Shown in pieces: positions 6,592 through 63,480 of a DNA stretch of 64,000 nucleotides. The notes beneath the pieces were generated by a model that saw only the letters and a program-made list of their open reading frames with translations, made no database searches and was not told where the DNA came from. The stretch comes from Isurus oxyrinchus (taxonomy: Eukaryota): contig JANJGN010000007.1 of NCBI GenBank assembly GCA_026770705.1, positions 97,340,001-97,404,000 on the forward strand, given 5' to 3'. The position numbers and the translations under genes were made by a program. Each line of letters opens with the position of its first letter. Position 1 is the stretch's first letter.

Positions 6592-7546
6592 AAACCTTGA
6601 GAGTCTAGTACATTACAGGGTGGAATGGGGAAAAATCCAGAATAAGAAATTAGTTTTTCAGTGTCCGATATGTCGGTCAGCACTGATTATTGCTTAGCCA
6701 TTAAACAGGCCTCATTTAGTCAGAGTTTATTTTTGTCAGTGAGATCACGGCACCCGAACTGGGAATTTATGTAAATTAATTGATATCTAAGATTTCCGTA
6801 TGAAGTCTTCACCAGCGAATCCTTAAGTGGAGTGAAGAAGCACACACGCAACCTTCTGGTTTTCAGCAATGAAGTGTGAATTTGCGGACAGCAGTAGTTC
6901 GTATAGGTTTAACAGTGAAATGACATTTGGGGCTCACAATGTCTCAATCATAATCTCGGCCACGATCATCAAGAGACATATGATGTGTTTGGGAAAAACG
7001 CAAAACCGATACTAAGATTCGAGGTAGTGGTTTAAGACTTCTACCAAAAAAAAGTTGCAAATTGTTTAATGGGCAAATGTGCAGAAAATAAGTTGGAAGG
7101 TTTTCAGAAAGTAAACACTATGCCATATCAATTCCTTACCCTAAACTGCAAAATCATTACTTCATATAAATTAAAGTCATGAACAACAAGTTAGTCAAAG
7201 GGACACCACTAATGTAAAAAAAAATGCTTGCAAAGTTTTAAAAGCTACTGGCAGTTGGGGGAGGTATAAACAATAACAAACAGTTGCAGCAGAAAGAAGT
7301 TATCTGGACCCACCCTGTAATGTCCTGTAAGTATATTGTAATTTTCAATTAGGTTGCCCGTCATCCTTCGAAATTTCAGCGAATGCAGACCAAACATACT
7401 CAATCTCCCCTCATACGACAATCCTGCCATCTCATGGATTAATCTGGTGAACCTCCATTGCATTTTCTCTATGGCAAGTATACCCTTCTTCAAGAAGGTG
7501 ATACAAGCTGTGCACAATACTCCAACAAGGCTCTATATAACAGCAG

Positions 7547-9557
7547 ATAAAAGCAAAATACTGCGGATGTTGGAAATCCAAAAAAAAAATAAAAATACCT
7601 GGAAAAACTCAGCGGGTCTGACAGCATCTACGGAGAGGAATACAGTTAACGTTTCGAGTCTGTGTGCCTGTTCAACAGGACTAAGGAAAAATTGAAAAGG
7701 GGTGAAATATAAGCTGGTTTAAGTTGGTGGGGGGGGGGGTGGGGGGACATGTAGAGCAGGATAGAGGGCCAGTGATAGTTGGAGATAGCCAAAAGATGTC
7801 ATAAACAAAAGGGCAAAGAGGTGTTGTAGGTGATGATATTATCTAAGGCATGTGATAACTGCTGACATTATTGGAAAAAAGGGGGATAGCAAAGGGGGTG
7901 GGGATGGAGAAGAGAGTTCGTGATCTGAAATTGTTAAACTCAATATTCAGGCCGGAAAGCTGTAAAGCGCCGAGTCGGAAGATGAGGTCCTGTTCCTCCA
8001 GTTTGTGTTGAGCTTGTCTGGAACAATGCAGAACTCCAAGGACGGGCATGTCGGCATGAGAACAGGGTGGAGTGTTGAAATGGCAAGCGACAGGGATGTC
8101 TAGGTCATGCTTGCGGACAGATCGAAGGTATTCTGCAAAGCGGTCACCAAGCCTGCGTTTCATCTCTCCAATGTAGAGGAAGTCACATTGGGAGCAGCGA
8201 ATGCAGTAGACCATGTTGAGGGAAGTGCATGTGAAATACTGCTTCACTTGAAAAGTGTATTTGGACCGTTGGATGGTGAAGTGAGTGGAGGTAAAGGGGG
8301 CAGTTGTTTTACCTTCTGCGGTTGCATGGGAAGGTGCCATGGGATCGGGTTGAGGTGTAGGGGGTGATGGAAGAGTGGACCAGCGTGTCCCGAAGGGAAT
8401 GATCCCTGTGATATGTCGCCGAGCGGGCGGGGGGGGGGGGGGGGCGGGAGGGGATTAAGGTAAGATGTGTTTGGCGGTGGCATCATGCTGGACTTGGTGA
8501 AAATGTCAGAGGATGTTCCTTTGAATGCAGAGGCTGGTGGGGTGATAAGTGAGGACAAGGGGGACCCTATCATGGTTCTTGGAGGGAGATGAAGATATAA
8601 GGGCGGATGCACGGGAGTTGGGCCAGACACGGTTGTGGGCCCTGTCAACCACCGTGGGTGCAAAACCTCGGTTAAGGAAGAAGGAAGACATGTGAGAGGA
8701 ACTGTTTTTGAAACTGGCTTCATCAGCATAGATGCGATGGAGGTGAAGGAACTGAGAGAATGGGATGGAGTCCTTACAGGAAGTGGGGTGTGAGGAGTTG
8801 TATTCAAGGTAGTTATGGAAGTCGGTAGGCTTTTAATGAATATTGGTGAACAGTTTATCACCAGAAATTCAGACAGAGAAGTCAAGGAACGGAAGGGAAG
8901 TGTCAGAGATGGACCATGTGAAAATGATGGAGGGATGGAATTTGGAAGCAAAATTAATATTTTTTTCCAGGTCCAGACGAGAGCATGAAGCAGCACTGAG
9001 AAGCAATCATCGATATACTGGAGAAGAGTTGTTGGAGGGGCCCGGAGTGGGACTGAACTAGGGAATTTTCCACCACCTCCCCCCACCCCCCACCTTCTGA
9101 TCCCCCTTTTGTCCGATAATATATACAGATTTTTCTTTTCCCACCTATTTCACTTATATTTAAGTATATTTCCATTTATTGTTTTATCTCTACCTTTTAG
9201 CCTATTTCAATCCCTTGCTCCCACCCCACCCCACCTACGGTTATCTGTACATTGCTCGTCCTGCTTTCTACCCTTAATGTCACCTATTATCACATTCCTT
9301 AGATAATATCATCACTTTCAACACCTCTTCGTCCTTTTGTCTATGACATCTTTTGGCTATCTGCACCTATCCCTGGCCCACTATCCAGCTCTACTTGTCC
9401 CATCCATCCCCACCTTAAATCAGCTTATATTTGACCTCTTTTCTTTTTTTCCTTTGATTTGTTGAAGAATCTTATGGACTCGAAACGTTAACTCTGTTCC
9501 TGTCCGCAGATGCTGTCAGACCTGCTGAGTTTTTCCAGGTATTTTTATTTTTCTTTT
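7547..9557 (-). mobile_element. Penelope-like element: partial RT plus GIY-YIG endonuclease, with terminal repeat in inverted orientation (9075-9557)
   Basis: VYCIRCSQCDFLYIGEMKRRLGDRFAE and GLNIEFNNF (GIY-YIG); QYIDDCF (RT); the ends are inverted copies of the 3' repeat; degenerate TSD ctatataacagcag/ctacataactgaag. Confidence 0.9.
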
Positions 9558-10254: not shown

Positions 10255-11549
10255 GACAACAACTTCTCTATGTCTCACTATATAAGAAGTATCCCGCTAT
10301 TTTGTTCATTTTTCTGCAAAATGAAAAACTTCACACTTAGTCACATTGCCTTCCGCCTGCAAAGTTTCAGACCGTTCACTTAGCCTGCCCAAATCCTTTT
10401 AAAGTCGCCTTGCTTCCTCCTCACAACTCAGATGCCCATCTTACTTCATGTCATCAGCAAAGGTGGAAATATTGCAATTAGTCACCACACCCAAATAATC
10501 TATATAGCTGTGAGCAGCTGTGGACATAGCACTGATCCTTGTGCCAAGGATCAGCCTGCCATCACGAGAATGACATGTTATTCCTGCTCTCTGCTTCCTG
10601 TCTGTTAACCAATTCGCAATCCATACTAATACAAATCTCCCAATCCCATGCCCCCTATTATTTTTTACCGACCTCCTGTTTTGCATCATATCAAACGCCT
10701 TCTGAACATCCAAATATACCGCATCCACTGGTTCAGTGTTCATTCAGTAGCGATAGTATATGAATGGATAACGTGCTTCAAATCTCAAGGAACCACATAT
10801 CAAATCATGCAAGCTATCCGAAGGTAGTCGGCCTAATGAAATCACAGTAATAAATAAAGTGATGACACTCAAACATAACAAACCCCAAGGAACCAATGGT
10901 TCTCTCGTAAGATTTAAAGGAAGTAGCTGGGACTGTAGTGGATGCATTCATTTTAACCTTACAATGTTCCATTGCTTATTAAATTGACCACTTAGTTTGA
11001 GGAATCCTGCATGCCATACTGTTGCTTAAAAATCTAAGAGGTAGGAACAAGAGAATAATAAACCAGTTAGTCTAATATCAGGAAATTACTAGAATCAATA
11101 ATTAAGATATCGTCACTCAATATGTTTGTTCCTTTCCAGCTTATCAGACAACATTACTTGGAAGGGTGGACGAAGCTGGACGAATTTCTGAAGGGATGAT
11201 TAAGCAGTGGGCAGGAAAACTGAAATGGATAATAATGAAATATACTTACTGAAAACATTTGATAAACTCCCTCATAAGGGACTAAAACCTACAATTGAAG
11301 CTCGTTAGAGCTTGTTTGTTGATGAATTACATGAGGGAAGAGAGCAATATGTAGAAGTTTGCCCATGACACAAAGATAGGCAACAATCTATTCTGTTCCA
11401 AGTGGGGATTAATATTGTAAGTAGATCGAGCAGATAATAGATGGGATGAAAACAGAGAGGCAGGAGGTATTGAACAGAGGGGGTATGCTTGGAGTAGGTG
11501 TCCCGCCAGATCACAATGGCGTGTATCACAAATGACTAAATAAAGTACT

Positions 11550-12435
11550 AAAGACAAAACAAAACTGCGGATGCTGGAAAGCCAAAACAAAAACAGAATT
11601 ACCTGGAAAAACTCAGCAGGTCTGGCAGCATCGGCGGAGAAGAAAAGTGTTGACGTTTCGAGTCTTCATGACCCTTCGACAGAACTTGATTTCGAGTCCA
11701 GGAAAGAGTTGAAATATAAGCTGGTTTAAGGTGTGTGTGTGTGGGGGGGGGGGGGGGGGGGGGGGGCGGAGAGAGAGAGAGAGACAGAGGTGCTTGTGTA
11801 GACAAACAAGCAGTGATAGAAGCAGATCATCAAAAGATGTCAGTGACAATGGGACAAAAGAACACATAGGTGTTAAAGTTAAAGTTGGTGATATTATCTA
11901 AACGAATGTGCTAATTAAGAATGGATGGTAGGGCACTCAAGGTACAGCTCTAGTGGGGGTGGGGGGAGCATAAAAGATTTTAAAATATTTAAAAATATTT
12001 AAATGATTATTTTTAAATATTTTAAAATCTTTTATGCTCCCCCCACCCCCACTAGAGCTGTACCTTGAGTGCCCTACCATCCATTCTTAATTAGCACATT
12101 CGTTTAGATAATATCACCAACTTTAACTTTAACACCTATGTGTTCTTTTGTCCCATTGTCACTGACATCTTTTGATGATCTGCTTCTATCACTGCTTGTT
12201 TGTCTACACAAGCACCTCTGTCTCTCTCTCTCTCTCCGCCCCCCCCCCCCCCCCCCCCCCCCCCCCAACACACACACACACACACACACCTTAAACCAGC
12301 TTATATTTCAACTCTTTCCTGGACTCGAAATCAAGTTCTGTCGAAGGGTCATGAAGACTCGAAACGTCAACTCTTTTCTTCTCCGCCGATGCTGCCAGAC
12401 CTGCTGAGTTTTTCCAGGTAATTCTGTTTTTGTTT
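11550..12435. mobile_element. Fold-back (palindromic) non-autonomous Penelope-like insertion
   Basis: Near-identical inverted arms of about 415 bp (11584-11997 / 12008-12435), loop of about 10 nt, exact 13-bp TSD taaataaagtact (11537-11549, 12436-12448). Confidence 0.92.
12334..12372 (+). ncRNA. Minimal type-I hammerhead ribozyme-like motif in the Penelope terminal repeat (mirror copy 11648-11686 on -)
   Basis: agtt-CTGTCGA-a-gggtc-atgaa-gactc-GAAA-cGTC-aact: stem I agtt/aact, stem II gggtc/gactc, palindromic acgt stem III. Confidence 0.65.
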
Positions 12436-12554
12436 TAAATAAAGTACTGTTGGATATAACAAACACCCAAGATTTGGTTTGACGTGCGTCGATGCCAATC
12501 AACTTTTAATCGTCCCATGGATACGGCTGAGCAGCTGATGACCTTGGTGCTAGG

Positions 12555-13130
12555 TTTTCTTCTTATTGTGTCCAAGAACAGTCTATACATGGCTCAGCCA
12601 GAACTGGGCACATGTTTGCACCTTGTTGAATTCGGCAAGATCTGCAAAACTGCAGGGTTCCTCTAGCGAATAAGTATTGCACGAGATGTGCATAGTCTGT
12701 GGCTCAGTTCCACATTCATTAGTTGTCGGGCTGTTTGTATATCCACATTTGTTTAGTGACACCTTTGAACGACCTACATCAGTCCTAAGTCTGTTAAGGC
12801 ACGTCCAGGTTGCCCAGTTGCAATTAACTCCTGGGGGAAGGCTTTCATCCGATAGAATTTCCATCACTGGGGGTTGTTCGAGACTGGTGAACCGATCTTT
12901 CCACAAGGCGATGCGAGCTTCAGATGGGGTTGACTGTAATGGAACAACACTGTTCATGAAGCTATTCCATGACTTTAGGTGGCTGGGTGTAGGTATATGA
13001 CCATGTAGAGGGTGCCTCTCATCTGATGTTTGACGGACTCACTCTTTCTTGCTGGCTACCGTTCTTCTTAAATCAGGGGGAGCGATACCCACCAGGATAT
13101 ATAGGCTGTTGGTGTTTATTGGTTTTAAGT
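12555..13130 (-). mobile_element. Non-LTR retrotransposon 3' fragment (Vingi/RTE-like)
   Basis: C-terminal motif WTCLNRLRTDVGRSK...ECGTEPQTMHI and 3' tail gacacaataagaagaaaa. Confidence 0.7.
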
Positions 13131-17726: not shown

Positions 17727-18208
17727 GTAATTCACTCTTCTCATCACTTTCAACTCACATACTCACAAACAAAGCACCCACCCACAGGGATCTCAGAGAT
17801 TGACCATTCAATAGACTTCACCATTCACTCGCCTACACACCTTCATCTGCCCTGTCGGCCATGTCCTCATCCCAGCCATGACAGCTCTCATCACAACACA
17901 TGCTAGGCATTCTTATCATCTGGACTAGCAGACGTCCTGCCAACATTCTCTGCATATGTATTCATGCAGGACAAGCTGGCCCAATACAGGGAGACATTGC
18001 AGTTTAGCTCCGGAATGCCTGACATCAAGATCCTCATAGACTTTACAAATAGTAATCGATTTGGCCGGCAACAACCTAGACCATTCCTGTGCTGGTGGCG
18101 AGATTGACGGTGGGTGCACAATGATGTGAGGAGCCAGCAGTGCAAGGTCCATCATACAACCATGTTGAGAGTCAGTGCCAATGTTCCATTAGCCCCTGCC
18201 ATGCAGTA

Positions 18209-18587
18209 ATCACAGATCACAGAATCACAGACTTTTAATGGCTGAGGAGACCAATTGGCCGTCCTGTCTGCACCGGCTCTCCAAATGGGCATGTTGAACT
18301 AGTGCCATTGCCTGGCCTTTTCCCCATACATTGTTTCTATTCAAATAATCATCAATCTCTCACTTGAAAGCCTCTATTGAACCTAGACCCACCACACTTC
18401 CGGGCAGTGCATTCCAGACCCGAAGCACTCGTTGTGTGAGGAAGTATTTTTCTTCCCATCACATTGCTTATTTTTCAAATCATTTTAAATATGTGTCCTC
18501 TAGTTCTTGGTCCTTTTACGAGTGGGAACGGTTTCTCCATATCTACTCTGTCTAGTCCCCTTATGATTTTGAACATCTCTAATTCGC
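18209..18587 (-). mobile_element. Short CR1 3' end
   Basis: (cacagaat)-type tail and probable short TSD taatca. Confidence 0.8.
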
Positions 18588-19619
18588 TAATCAGTACTTG
18601 ACTTCCTTGCTTTCACAGGCACCTCTGAGAAGCAGCTAAGGCAGCCCATGACCAGAATGCTCGACTCAAACCCCGCAGATATTTCGGAAGAAGGATCTGA
18701 TGACATCCCAATTGAAGACCTGTCAGAGCACTGACCCACACCTTCTACCAGCACAGGGACAAACATGTCATTGAGACGTAGCTCTAGTGTAGACTCGGGG
18801 TGCAAATCTGTTAAGCAGATATCTGATCCACAGCAGGCAACGAAGCAACTTTTCAGTTTTCTTGCACTTTGAGTACATCTGGAGGCCAGACACCCATTGA
18901 ATCCGAGTCATGCAAGGAGCATCTGGACTCTCAATTGGTCGCCAATTGGTCTCCTCAGCCATTAAAAGTCTGTGATTCTGTGATCTGTGATTACTGCATG
19001 GCAGGGGCTAATGGAACATGTCTCAGTTGCTTGATCTGCAAAGGAAAGCTCGGGAACATTAAGAAGGGATGTCTGGCGCACTCCTCGGATTTCAAGGCAA
19101 AATGTAGGAATCCATCTGCCTTCAGTCTGAGGGTCCAGGACATCGCTCTTCCACTGCTGCAAGGGCTGAACTCCATCACTGACATCATAGTTGGCCATCA
19201 ATAGTTTCAATACGAGAGTGGTGTAGGAATGCTCAATCTCACTCCAGCTTTCCTTTCTACTCAGGAAGGCCAGCAGGGGCCGTCAGCCGCTATAAGAGAG
19301 GAGGGTCGGCTGGTACAAAACCCAAGGCCATTAATCCAGTTGGCAACTCGAGTACCTGGTTCATCCAAATCCCCTCAGCCCGTGACTCCAGCCAGCAGCT
19401 CCAGCTCGACAGCCCGAAGTGAAGTGCCACTGCCACACAGCCAAACCCGGAAAGCAAGCTGGGGGCCTTCAGGTGTCGGGCCTCCATAGGACTCCCGTCA
19501 TCACAGGCAAGGACATCACAGGCAAGTTGCAACAGTCAGCAGGCGGCCTCCAGCTCAGCTGTGGGTGCCAGGGTAGCGCCAAGATGTAGCAGCAGGGTAA
19601 GTAAGCTTAAGATTATGTG

Positions 19620-35580: not shown

Positions 35581-38500
35581 GTGACCTTTCTAATAAATAG
35601 ATAAGTGAACAACAACTGTGTAGAGGCCTCTTATGTTGAATGTTTATTATAAGATTTTCCATTTGATTTTGTTTTATTTCGTACTTATTATATCCGTATC
35701 TATAATAATGATCATCATTATCTCCGTCTGTAAACCATGCTCTTTTTTTATAACAGTGACTGACGGGTCCTCTCTATCAGTTCGCCAGCTCCCCATCCGT
35801 GTGACGGTGGTCAAATGTGTAAATGTGTCAATTTATTGCTCCATCCCACTTTTCGATCGCAACACATGGGTGGATGTTTATTGGCGGAGAGACAGCCAGA
35901 AGGGGATTTTGGATTTGATTGCAGACACAACGAAAATAATGACACCTTTCAGACAGGGATCTGCCGAACTCCGCCTGCTAAATGTGAATTTCCAGGACTC
36001 CGGAGTCTATTATTGCAGCGCCAGAGTGAGCGGGAGGATTTCCAATGGGAATGGAACGGAGTTAATTGTATACGGTGAGTGTCACTGAGCTGCTTTAACG
36101 GGTGTAAACTTATACAGCTGTATTTCAGAGCACATTTAATGAAAAGTCACTTTTCCCTCAGTTCAGTTAATCCTGTCTGTGAACGTACAGCTGTCGCGTA
36201 GAGCCAACATTGGAACTAAGAATATCTGACTTCGGACAATCATTGTTCTCAAATCCAGTCTCACTTATTCAAATAACTCAAATATGTTTAAATGTTTTCA
36301 AAGAATGCGGGCGTCTTTGGCACACCCAAGATTCATTGCATATTCGTACTTCTTCTTGATAATGTGGTTTGGTGTCGTTATCTCGAATCGCTGCATTTGG
36401 TATGGACAATGGTTTAACACCGTGCTCTGAGCTATGGTGAAATTGCCGCATTTTGTTATCCCGCAATGATGAAGGAACGGTGATATATGTTCTAGTCAGC
36501 ATTCCGTGCGTACTGGAGGGAATTTGGAAGTGTTGGTGTTCCCATGTGGTGTTCTGCCTTCACTTTCTATGTGATAATCTCACGGACTCGGGAGGTGGTG
36601 TCGAAGAATCTTTGGCGCGTATTGTAGTGCACCGCAAACACGATGCCCCTACAGTGAAATGAGTGAGCGTTTCAAGTGTTGGATAAAGTGCCTTCAATGG
36701 ATTTGTTTTACGGGATCGTATGGAGTATTGTTGCATCAATATACATCCAGACCGTAGTGAGAATTTCATCACACTCATGAGTTGTAGGTGGTGGGGACGC
36801 TTTGAGGAGAGAATACTTGAGCCACTCATTGTAGTACATAAAGCCTCTGACCTCTTCCAGTAACGATCGCATTTTAATGGTCATTTGTTTTGCATAATTA
36901 TAATTGGAAAATGTTGGGTGTGCAAACGTTAATCTACGTTAAAACAACTATGGCAAAAAGAAATAGACGCGCATCAATCTCTCAATGAAATCCTGTTTGA
37001 ATCATTGCATCCAATCCTCTTATCGCCGAAGAATTGAAATCCACTGTATTTACAAGTGCCCCAGAGTTTAATACCATTTCCAGATTACAAGGGAATGTAA
37101 TGTGTGAATTGATAGCAAGTGTATGTAAATGTTAAAAATAGAGGGAAGAGATACAGGGTAGTGTGGCATAAAATAAATCAAAGTTGTAAAAACAAAGCGC
37201 CGTTACAACGCCGGCATTAAACAGAAGCATGATTAAATGAATGGTCATAATTGCTGATACCAGGTTTTATATATATATATATATGCTGATAGGTTTGAAA
37301 GTAACAATGATGACATATTTGCTTGCATCACCTATTGCATTTGCACAACCAGGTTATTTTCACAATGTTAAGACATTACAGTTGCATTCACTGATTAGAT
37401 TTACATGGTCATGCATTGACCATTCTGCTTGCACGAATTGGAGATCAAACATGCAAATCATCTTCCGACTAGGCACCTTACAGCCTTCCGGACTGAATAT
37501 TGAATTCAACAACTTTAGGTCGTGAGCTCCCTCCCCCATCCCCACCCCATTTCTGATTCCCCCTTTCTTTTTTTTTTCCAATAAATTATATAGATTTTTC
37601 TTTTCCCACCTATTTCCATTATTTTTAAATATTTTAAAATCTTTTATGCTCTCCCCACCCCCATTAGAGCTATACCTTGAGTGCCCTACCATCCATTCTT
37701 AATTAGCACATTCGTTTAGATAATATCAACAACTTTAACTTTAACACCTATGTGTTCTATTGTACCATTGTCGTTGACATCTTTTGATGATCTGTTTCTA
37801 TCACTGCTTGTTTGTCCATACAACCACCTCTCTCTCTCTCTATCTCTCCGCCCCCCACACACACACCTTAAACCAGCTTATATTTCAACTTTTTCTTGGA
37901 CTCGAACTCAAGTTCTGTCGAAGGGTCATGAGGACTCGAAACGTCAACTCTTTTCTTCTCCGCCGATGCTTCCAGACCTGCTGAGTTTTTCCAGGTAATT
38001 CTGTTTTTGTTATGCACTTATGTTAATTTGTTGGATCAAATTACAGTAAGTTATATGATTGCAACTATGATTTCCATGATTAAATGCATAGTTGATGACT
38101 GAAAATGAGATTATTCAAGCACTGGAGGGGGAACATTTCAACAAAACACCATCAGTGATGATAAAATAATAAATCTCCCATGTCAAGTGGCCCGCCTGCG
38201 GGCTCAATCTGAGACTCTAGTAGGATAGCACCGGTAAAGGCGAAGTATCTCGATTCAGCTTCTGAAGGTCACGCAGGAGATTGATTCTGTTAATGTAATA
38301 ATTACTGAGATACTGTTTAACATGCAGTCGGGGGTAACGCTAGAAGTCGAATGGGATCACTGTCTGATAGCTGGAAAATTTCAGAGATTGAGTATGTTGT
38401 GAACTCAAAGGTAAAACATTCCTGATGAAGCAGGAAGTGGTTTTTAACGTTACCGTTTGTTTCAGCGAGCGCCGGCGAATGGAATGGGTTAGATCTGCGG

Positions 38501-60570: not shown

Positions 60571-63480
60571 TACACACCTCCACATATTGAAGAGCAAATA
60601 TGTGCTCAATTTGTGGAGGTGTGTAAAAACAATAACAATTGGGTAATTATATTGGGTGATTTCAACTTTCCCAACATTAATTGGGATAGACATAGTGTTA
60701 CAGGTTTGGATGGAGTGGATATCTTATAACGTGTACAGGAGAATATTTTAGGTCAATTAGTAGAGGGTCCAACAAGGGACAATGCAATGCTAGACCTAAT
60801 TCTGGGGAATGAAGCCAGACAGGTGGTTCAGGTTGTGGTGGGCAAGCATTTTACTGATAGCGACCACAACATGATACAGTTTAAATTTGTTGTAAGACAA
60901 AGAAATCGACAAGCTGCAAAAAAAAGTGTTTTGAATTGGGGGAGAGTGGATTTCAGTAAAATATGGGAACAGTTAATTGTGGTGAAATCTACAGAGGAAC
61001 AGTGGGGGGCGATCGCACAGGAAATGGGGAGGGTATAGGCTCAAAATATTCCCTCTAGGATAAAAAGAAGGAGTAACAAGCCCAGAGAACCATGGATGAC
61101 CAGGGATATTCAGCTTACCATGGGAAGGAAAATACAGGCTTTTAGCAGGTACAAGGAAGCTGTAGAGGCATTAATGGAGCACAGAGAGTGCTGGGAGGCC
61201 CTCAAGAAAGCAAAGAGGGGATATGAGAAAGCTCTGGCTGGTACATTTAGGGAAAAGCCCAAGATATTCTATAAGTATATCAATGGGAAACAGATAACAA
61301 AGGAAAGAGTAAGGCCCATAAGGGACCAAGGGGGCAATCTATGGGTGGAGCCAAAGAACATCACTAGAGTGTTGAATAAATTCTTCACATCCATTTTCAC
61401 CCAAGAGAATGCGGGTGAAGGTATCAAACTTGGAGAGAGAGACTGCGAGGTCTTTATGCAAACTGATATAGGGAGTGACAAGGGATTGGAAGTGTTGGCA
61501 GGCTTAAAAGTGGACAAATCTCCAGGTCCCAGTCCCTTGAGGGAGGCAAGGGAGGAGATCGCAGGTGCTCTGACTAAAATGTTTAATTCCTCTCTGGCCA
61601 CGGGGGAGGTGCCAAAGTACTGGAGAACAGCTAATGTGGTTCCGCTATTTAAGAAGTGTAGTAGAGATAAGCCAGGGAACTACAGGCCGGTGAGTCTATC
61701 GTCAGTGGTAGGGAAGCTATTGAAGAAATTTCTGAAGGAGAGAATCTATCTCCACTTTGAGAGGCAATGTTTGATCATGGATAGTCAGCATGGCTTTGTC
61801 AGAGGGAGGACATGCCTAATAAATTTAATTGAATATTTTGAGGAGATGACCAGGTGTGTAGATAACGGTAGCACAGTTGATGGAGTTTATATGGATTTCA
61901 GCAAAGCCTTTGAAAAGGCCCCACATGGGACACTTATAAAGAAGGTAAAAACACATGGAAAATAGGGTAATTTGATAAGGTGGATTCAAAATTGGCTTAG
62001 ATGTAGGAGGCAGAGGGCGATGATAGAATGATGCTTTAGTGGCTGGAAGCCAGTATCCAGTGACGAACCACAGGGATCAGTGCTCGGTCCCCTCTTATTT
62101 GTTAATTAACTAAACGACATATGTGACTATGTGGGGGGTAGGATTAATAAGTTTGCGGATGGCACAAAGATTGGCCTGTGGTTAACAGTGAGGTTGAGTG
62201 TCTTGGGCTACAGGACAATATAGAGTGGATGGTCAAATTGGCAGATAAGAGGCAGGTGGAAATTAACACTGAAAAATGTGAGGTGATACAGATTGGAGGA
62301 AGTAATTTGACAAAGAATTATTCAATGAACGGGCATGGCACTAGGAAATTCTGAGGAACAAAGGGACCTTGGTGTGTGTGTCCATTGATCTCTGAAGCTG
62401 GAGGGGCATGTTAGTGGGGTGGTGAAAAAAGCATTTGGGACTGTTACCTTTAACAATCGAGGCATAGACTACCAAAGTGGGGAGGTCATACGGGACAAAA
62501 ACAGAATTACCTGGAAAAACTCAGCAGGTCTGGCAGCATCAGCGGAGAAGAAAAGAGTTGACATTTCGAGTCCTCATGACCCTTCGACAGAACTTGAGTT
62601 CGAGTCCAAGAAAAAGTTGAAATATAAGCTGGTTTAAGGTGTGTGTGTGGGGGGCGGAGAGAGCTCTCTGTCTCTCTCTTTCTCTCCGCCCCCCCACACA
62701 CACACCTTAAACCAGCTTATATTTCAACTCATTCTTGGACTCGAACTCAAGTTCTGTCGAAGGGTCATGAGGACTCGAAACGTCAACTCTTTTCTTCTCA
62801 GCTGATACTGCCGGACCTGCTGAGTTTTTCCAGGTAATTCTGTTTTTGTTTTGGATTTCCAGCATCTGCAATTTTTTTGTTTTTATCTCTGAGGTCATAC
62901 GGGAGTTGTATAGTACCTTGGTGAGGCCATAGCTGGAGTACTGCGTGCAGTTCTGTTTGCCACCTTATAGGAAGGATGTGATTGCACTGGAGGGGGTGCA
63001 GAGGAGATTCAACGGCATGTTGCCTGGGATGAAACACTTAAGTTATGAAGAGAGGTTTGATAGACTTGGGTTCTTTGCAGTGATGCAAAGAATGAGGGGT
63101 GACCTTATCGAGGTGTACAAGATTATGAGGGGCGTGGACAGGGCAGATAGGGAGCAGCTTTTCCCCTTAGTTGAAGGTTCAGTCACAAGGGTTCATAAGT
63201 TCAAACTGAAGGTCATGGGGATTAGGGGGGCTGTGAGGAAAAACTGTTTTACCCAGAGGGTGGTGATGGTCTGGAATGCACTGCTTGGGAGGGTGGTGTA
63301 GGATGGTTGCCTCACATCCTTTAAAAAGTAGCTGGATGAGCACTTGGCACGTACTAACATTCATGGCTATGGGCCAAGTGCTGGTAAATGGGATTCGGTA
63401 GGTAGGTAAAGTATTTGTCACGTGCCGGTGCAGACCCGAAGGCTCGAAGGGCCTCCTCTGCACTGTGATTCTGTGATTTT
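60571..63480 (+). mobile_element. Younger CR1, most of ORF2 plus 3' tail
   Basis: ILGDFNFPNINW; 289-aa ORF with PGNYRPVSLSSVVGK, SQHGFVRGR, YMDFSKAF; tail ctgtgattctgtgatt. Confidence 0.92.
62496..62890. mobile_element. Second fold-back Penelope-like insertion (hammerhead-like motifs at 62556-62594 - and 62750-62788 +)
   Basis: Inverted arms of about 165 bp meeting in a GA/TC tract; exact 14-bp TSD gaggtcatacggga (62482-62495, 62891-62904). Confidence 0.92.

Follow-up and report, generated by a model that had tools for sequence, protein, structure and literature searches.

A head-to-head insertion of Penelope-like element ends in Isurus oxyrinchus, probably a product of twin priming

The palindrome at positions 11537-12448 of the window (the whole 64,000-nucleotide stretch of Isurus oxyrinchus contig JANJGN010000007.1 that was analysed) is a single young insertion, a dead by-product of an abundant Penelope-like element (PLE). 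It consists of two 5'-truncated PLE ends lying head to head, which were probably made by twin priming on one RNA, with host end-joining as a likely partner. The head-to-head layout is already published for this class of element, and the locus itself is ordinary. Inverted 5'-truncated pLTRs with a one-sided tail of 30-40 bp and a target site duplication (TSD) are described for Pen2 and Pen2a of Adineta vaga (PMC3846280; overview in PMC8557442), and inverted repeats of variable size for Penelope of D. virilis (PMC2377424), in the accessible text of these papers.

The insert proper is 886 bp long (11550-12435) and lies between two exact copies of a 13-bp direct repeat (11537-11549 and 12436-12448). 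Its arms (aligned over 11584-11997 and 12008-12435) are inverted and separated by 9-10 nt, and the element 3' ends point outward. The left arm (11550-11997, minus strand) is an antisense 5'-truncated PLE 3' UTR/pLTR that ends at a long, tailed site (+37, counted from a reference point placed at the short end); the right arm (12007-12435, plus strand) is a sense 5'-truncated copy that ends at a short, tail-less site, at +3. Between them is a 9-nt filler (11998-12006), of which 7 nt match sequence no more than 40 nt away and which is likely to be a scar of locally templated end-joining. The turn, symmetric to 1 nt, falls within a quasi-palindromic AT tract. With 99 codons in the longest stop-free frame and 89 in the longest Met-started one, there is no real ORF. 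An earlier sequence-only reading had described just such an insert (886 bp, two inverted copies, a loop of about 10 nt, no ORF, an exact 13-bp TSD) and had called it a perfect hairpin. The inverted arms stand but the symmetry does not: a 34-nt tail (11550-11583, minus strand), one-sided as in PMC3846280, PMC8557442 and PMC11167929 so far as their accessible text goes, is confined to the outer end of the left arm, and the arms differ besides by one base at 11648, in stem I of a hammerhead-like motif, and by 15 nt of microsatellite. In the arm-arm comparison 1 of 303 sites differs.

Is the palindrome real, or a folded-back read mis-assembled? Among the records examined none spans the centre or the whole insert, and no long-read run is among them, which favours an artefact. 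Against this, a related species (organism B) has an empty site: in each of two studies (X5 and X8), one 482-nt contig maps to 11231-11536 and then to 12436-12611, with 11536 joined straight to 12436 and only a single 13-mer present, so that the duplication dates from the insertion itself. From organism A, an X1 contig (possibly of the very sample that was assembled) extends over the left junction to 11573 with 0 differences. In about 4% of run X21, which was used to look for the insert in a second individual of organism A, the unique flanks had no depth. Moreover, the arms are not identical in tail, base 11648 or microsatellite length, and their layout fits the long/short rule of the family given below. 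An assembly artefact is very unlikely as the source, and the palindrome and its TSD are confirmed as real rather than due to chance.

The arms belong to a large family. The sequence-only reading had pointed to variants present in both arms and absent from the copies at 37.9 kb and 62.7 kb. That distribution is correct, but a 49-mer holding both variants has 2,840 exact matches in the genome searched (4.98 Gb), against 0 for a reversed control. The variants therefore mark a subfamily, not a private template, and are no evidence of homogenisation. The sister variant, as found at 37.9 and 62.7 kb, has 10,704 exact matches genome-wide. (A DNA search with the centre of the palindrome returned itself and one 80% locus; common words were skipped in that search, which makes it uninformative.) The same end sequence adjoins a parent unit of 3.3 kb with a 926-codon frame encoding RT and GIY-YIG domains; the Pfam match to RVT_1 (E 7e-8) is above the cut-off, and that to GIY-YIG is weak (E 9e-4) and below it. 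Units in tandem, about 3,325 bp apart, occur in the family alongside head-to-head pairs. The family thus shows the features of EN+ PLEs (an RT/GIY-YIG ORF, tandem and inverted pLTRs, a one-sided tail of 30-40 bp and a TSD), and the parent ORF and one-sided tail bear out the Penelope origin, with inverted truncated ends, that had been proposed for the insert. A CX4CxxC motif precedes the endonuclease core of the parent ORF. A CX2-5CxxC linker between RT and endonuclease is assigned to Neptune and Nematis, and described as absent from Penelope/Poseidon, in the accessible text of PMC8557442; judged by this linker, the parent would be a PLE of Neptune/Nematis type.

Two other head-to-head insertions lie in the window, both with turn points different from that of the 11537-12448 copy. 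One (62496-62890) is independent and of the sister subfamily, with arms of about 170-185 bp, a 14-bp TSD and a tail on the right arm only. The other (7545-9556) is older and holds a decayed RT/GIY-YIG remnant; its tail is on the left arm only, and it has a possible 12-bp TSD with 2 mismatches. As for the remaining neighbours, a decayed LINE-like frame on the minus strand (12583-13038), which by its motif may be RTE-like, ends about 135 bp from the insert. An open frame at 35624-36088 on the plus strand carries an Ig V-set domain (Pfam E 1.6e-8), for which no close solved relative was found, and there is an exact inverted duplicate of 79 bp at 18181-18259 and 18941-19019.

How are such pairs made? 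Family members were fetched around all 100 listed matches of the first pattern (68 stretches, in the first 139 Mb of contig C1), together with 20 pairs and 12 single arms from the 100 listed matches of the second pattern and 4 loci picked by turn point; the pair sample is therefore almost wholly from C1 and required an exact match to the bait. On the scale set by the short-end reference point, element ends form two clusters, around 0 and around +38. Among the 61 TSD-flanked pairs, 60 join one long to one short end, one is long/long and none is short/short (binomial p 5e-17). These 61 comprise 50 called automatically, 10 called by hand because the first filter had missed their TSDs, and L078, counted by its inner pair; L070, a short/short adjacency without a TSD, was excluded. 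The sole long/long pair (L133) carries 126 foreign nt inside. In a separate set, the first 50 listed hairpins of the turn hot spot discussed below, 48 are clearly long/short. TSDs are 12-18 bp long with a mode of 14 (31/51) and are 68% AT. Positions of the short ends range from about -69 to +11, and the 'short site' is thus in part a product of trimming.

L078 (C1, about 98211730-98212110) was considered as a second long/long pair and rejected: one 14-bp target is present there in three copies, which means two events. The site was used twice, by a single-arm insertion of one subfamily that now stands beside a head-to-head pair of the other.

Self-priming has been proposed for such palindromes (PMC3846280, accessible text), and the sequence-only reading likewise took the insert for a snap-back product. 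A cDNA begun at the tailed site would fold back in the AT-rich tract and be copied to just short of the tail. The 1-nt symmetry of the turn within its AT tract agrees with this, as does the single difference in 303 sites between the arms. Symmetric turns are also in excess family-wide. Turns symmetric to within 12 nt occur in 13 of 48 pairs as against 1.3 by permutation (maximum 7 in 20,000), and in 5 of 33 with arms longer than 300 bp as against 0.5 expected, arms of 2.1 and 3.1 kb included; three loci selected for their turn were left out of these counts. In addition, junctions at the control turn sites (see below) often use built-in palindromes, which suits fold-back as well as annealing. 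Snap-back, however, cannot produce pairs whose tail is on the shorter arm, and this is the arrangement in 17 of the 30 clearly asymmetric pairs, the tail being on the longer arm in the other 13. Since neither arm of these 17 is contained in its partner, the second cannot have arisen as a fold-back copy of the first. Copying would, furthermore, have to stop at the short site, where single-arm insertions start (9 of the 12 with a TSD of their own end at the short site and 3 at the long one), and the 9-nt filler of the insert differs from the continuation of the template. The symmetric copy at 11537-12448 is still compatible with a snap-back origin, but as a general mechanism snap-back is not supported, and for the insert we hold it to be unlikely.

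That the two arms come from one source, as had been proposed for the insert, was upheld across the family. Variants otherwise private are common to the arms of a pair at 68 of 45,150 sites (1.51 per kb), whereas cross pairs have 119 in 2,544,647 sites (0.047 per kb), a difference of about 30-fold; own pairs with the tail on the shorter arm have 35 in 24,042 sites. At 11537-12448 itself there are 0 such variants in 303 sites. The arm-arm distance is below that to the nearest other copy in 14 of 36 pairs only. A common source could also mean twin priming on two RNAs transcribed from a single locus, or arms of independent origin that gene conversion later homogenised, and either would cover the head-to-head layout, the TSD, the presence of the tail on either arm and the shared private variants. 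Alone, though, this leaves unexplained both the strict pairing of long with short ends (60/61) and the matched stops in arms of 2-3 kb, and strong conversion is argued against by the many arm-private changes accumulated in older pairs (17-95 in most of the long old ones). We regard this explanation as quite unlikely. Identity of the arms in symmetric pairs was also considered as evidence of homogenisation and rejected because it is confounded by age.

The junctions fit an origin by end-joining of two cDNAs. In the 51 pairs there are 21 overlaps, 7 blunt joins, 20 short fillers and 3 large ones, and of the 12 fillers that are 6-40 nt long 8 have a match close by (a raw count). Turn points differ in all 51 automatically called pairs.

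Some other loci of the sample deserve mention in their own right. The junctions of L133 (385-1671), L065 and L116 hold 110-298 nt of other sequence. L058 (418-6668) is a near-perfect palindrome of 6.2 kb with 3.1-kb arms and a 15-bp TSD. L093 (436-6596) and L100 (380-4537) each lie within an older family member, at almost identical positions in the pLTR and with overlapping 14-bp TSDs, and L056 is alike; this place is possibly a self-targeting hot spot. L066, L074 and L060 are local tandem duplications of 3.7-4.7 kb, each with a PLE end and identical flanks.

The commonest symmetric turn lies at one place in the element. By pattern count, 2,767 loci genome-wide turn within 12 nt at the first base of hammerhead stem I. 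The corresponding position in the right arm is 12332-12334 (plus strand), which is not the turn of the 11537-12448 copy, both of whose arms ended about 385 nt from the short site. Control turns number 207 at the predicted cut site of the hammerhead, 121 about 20 nt upstream (a pattern that covers the larger subfamily only) and 117 at a TATA-like box, so the hot spot exceeds them 13-24x. Among the first 50 listed, the hot-spot hairpins are near-perfect and mostly about 240 bp long, and 49 loci show 30 loop types, with both loop orientations and two subfamilies represented, as expected of repeated independent formation; the 50 loci lend no support to the idea that whole hairpins are copied on later. 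Two of the 50 were set apart, L145 because its 'long' arm enters the ORF and L162 because its TSD call is an internal repeat.

What is at this position? The hot spot lies about 32 nt past the TATA-like box, and in three older copies the box is at 29 nt; in the insert the box occupies 12301-12308 (plus strand), 29-32 nt upstream of the first base of the hammerhead. The box is an imperfect match, conserved in older subfamilies, that may serve as a promoter. Long arms that run through the ORF in L145, L093 and L137 have 5' ends at the hot spot or no more than 10 nt away, although three further long arms begin 60-115 nt downstream of it. In L163 (C1:23664320-23665150) the sense side has two tandem copies that both begin at the hot spot, as would result if the RT had switched template on reaching a genuine RNA 5' end. 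We read the hot spot as the likely transcription start. The predicted hammerhead cut was rejected as the main source of turns, since its 207 loci are only 1.7-1.8x the two other controls; 4 of the first 50 loci turning there are blunt. Cap read-through, in the form of an extra C/G at the junction, was not adopted either: CC/GG does occur in some loops, but in both orientations and with most bases templated. A pile of loose read ends at 12334 was set aside as evidence because older subfamilies also stop matching there.

The sequence-only reading had noted one hammerhead-like motif per strand, and this is so: both are of minimal type I, at 12334-12372 on the plus strand, with a predicted cut after 12368, and at 11648-11686 on the minus strand, where the change at 11648 affects stem I. 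The plus-strand copy has a stem I of 4 bp, the core CUGUCGA that the minus-strand copy also has, a bulged A, a stem II of 5 bp, a GAAA loop and a palindromic ACGU in place of stem III. Position 6 of the core is A in the canonical hammerhead but U in 190 of the 195 family motifs counted. An Rfam scan of the whole window gave no hammerhead at E<=1, and the miRNA-precursor matches in it were dismissed as generic hairpins below the gathering score. Folded in isolation, the motif does no better than shuffles (z 0.27). In the predicted rod formed by the palindrome 94% of bases are paired, the whole motif among them, and on either strand the complementary arm is transcribed first. The suggestion that the locus yields a potentially self-cleaving RNA in either polarity thus conflicts with the predicted fold, according to which each motif would be fully paired; the motif came in with the element end, and in RNA transcribed right through the palindrome it is predicted not to fold. 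Minimal hammerheads of PLEs act as dimers with low activity (PMC4209133, accessible text). The family motif agrees with the metazoan PLE hammerheads described there in being of type I, in lacking loop 3 and in having a palindromic 15-16, a bulge before stem II and a short stem I. It differs from them in its stem II of 5 bp, and from the canonical core in its U6 throughout the family, and it is known from sequence.

Could the palindrome nevertheless belong to a non-autonomous family of retrozyme or viroid-like kind, propagated by a rod-shaped RNA that cleaves itself, as had been suggested? In retrozymes the units are repeated head to tail, every unit has its hammerhead on the same strand, and expression is as circles (PMC7229834; bioRxiv 10.64898/2026.07.22.740005; accessible text of both). 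The insert is like non-LTR retrozymes, as these two sources present them, in being non-coding and PLE-related, with a hammerhead-like motif and a long TSD, and unlike them in being head-to-head and single-copy with one motif per strand. The absence of an ORF, the motif on each strand, the TSD and the stable predicted rod all speak for such a family, as do the thousands of ~240-bp hairpins with a recurring turn. On the other side, same-strand tandem hammerheads, a canonical foldable type-I motif and a fixed multi-copy structure were not found, the core having U6 and the motif being fully paired in the predicted rod. A propagating family would share its turn, yet the turn-around points, which the sequence-only reading had wished to see examined for recurrence or variation, vary among the pairs sampled (51/51). 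The junction of the insert is unique: four loci turn in its AT tract, and no two of them are joined alike. The tail variant of the insert occurs in 4 further copies, but in other structures: two long single arms, one full unit and one tiny hairpin. Finally, the variety of hot-spot loops (30 types in 49 loci) suggests independent formation, and turns at the predicted cut site (207) are not in excess. The retrozyme reading is thus largely refuted and hardly credible for this locus.

We return to twin priming on one RNA. In this scheme staggered nicks about 14 bp apart would leave two target 3' ends. Synthesis from one nick would begin at the distal site, so as to include the tail, and from the other at the proximal site, some 35 nt further upstream, a pattern that the pairing counts show and for which we infer the mechanism. 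Both enzymes would copy the same RNA towards its 5' end. Stops at independent points would give asymmetric pairs, and stops at the same RNA 5' end symmetric ones like that at 11537-12448; the commonest common stop would be the 5' edge of the hammerhead, the likely transcription start. The two cDNA 3' ends would then be joined through microhomology or a short locally templated filler. In vitro, a PLE protein nicks and extends both target strands, two adjacent internal start sites bound the tail, the protein is predicted to be a dimer, and hammerhead cleavage is unnecessary (PMC11167929, accessible text). That paper reports start sites that do not differ between the strands, which falls short of strict long/short coupling in vitro. 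We lean slightly towards a more specific version, in which a protein dimer would hold one uncleaved RNA and prime from two fixed sites never used twice, the ~240-bp hairpins being run-off records of a capped RNA 5' end at the first base of the hammerhead. If true, such coupled twin priming would account, by one reaction, for all three features: inverted arms, a tail on one side and a 14-bp TSD.

In the twin priming of L1, one RNA serves as template for primers on the two target strands, and the cDNAs are linked through microhomology, which leaves an inversion flanked by a TSD. Because the second primer binds far upstream, the arms do not overlap. In the family described here, by contrast, only about 35 nt separate the starts, and each arm repeats sequence of the other.

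The insertions are like the complex insertions of EN+ PLEs (PMC3846280, PMC8557442 and PMC2377424, accessible text) in their inverted ends, one-sided tail, TSD, palindromic junction and hammerhead-like motif in the pLTR. They differ from those of A. vaga (PMC3846280) in that the arms of the insert are too short for an ORF and that the TSD is 13-14 bp as against 8-10 bp. In our family the side of the tail is independent of arm length, for which the accessible text of the same three papers holds no report. With PAc, a Poseidon element of Anolis carolinensis (PMC11167929, accessible text), the family shares two RT start sites that bound the tail, extension of both strands, independence of hammerhead cleavage and AT-rich targets; it is unlike PAc in having the CX2-5CxxC linker and in that its start sites precede the first ATG, whereas those of PAc are 111-118 nt inside the ORF. 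Among titles and abstract beginnings in the open literature we found no twin-priming account or tail-pairing count for PLEs, and no statement of the long/short pairing rule, the independence of arm length or the hot spot.

The PLE insertion reaction has been called 'still undefined' (PMC8557442, accessible text). The locus at 11537-12448 is one footprint of that reaction, and the family counts argue against simple self-priming. These counts (pairing, tail independence, matched stops and hot spot) are directly testable in the existing in vitro Penelope system. Beyond the reaction itself, the sequence-only reading had seen in the palindrome a potential source of double-stranded RNA, which is possible; the thousands of such palindromes in this genome may give rise to double-stranded RNA and may make the DNA fragile.
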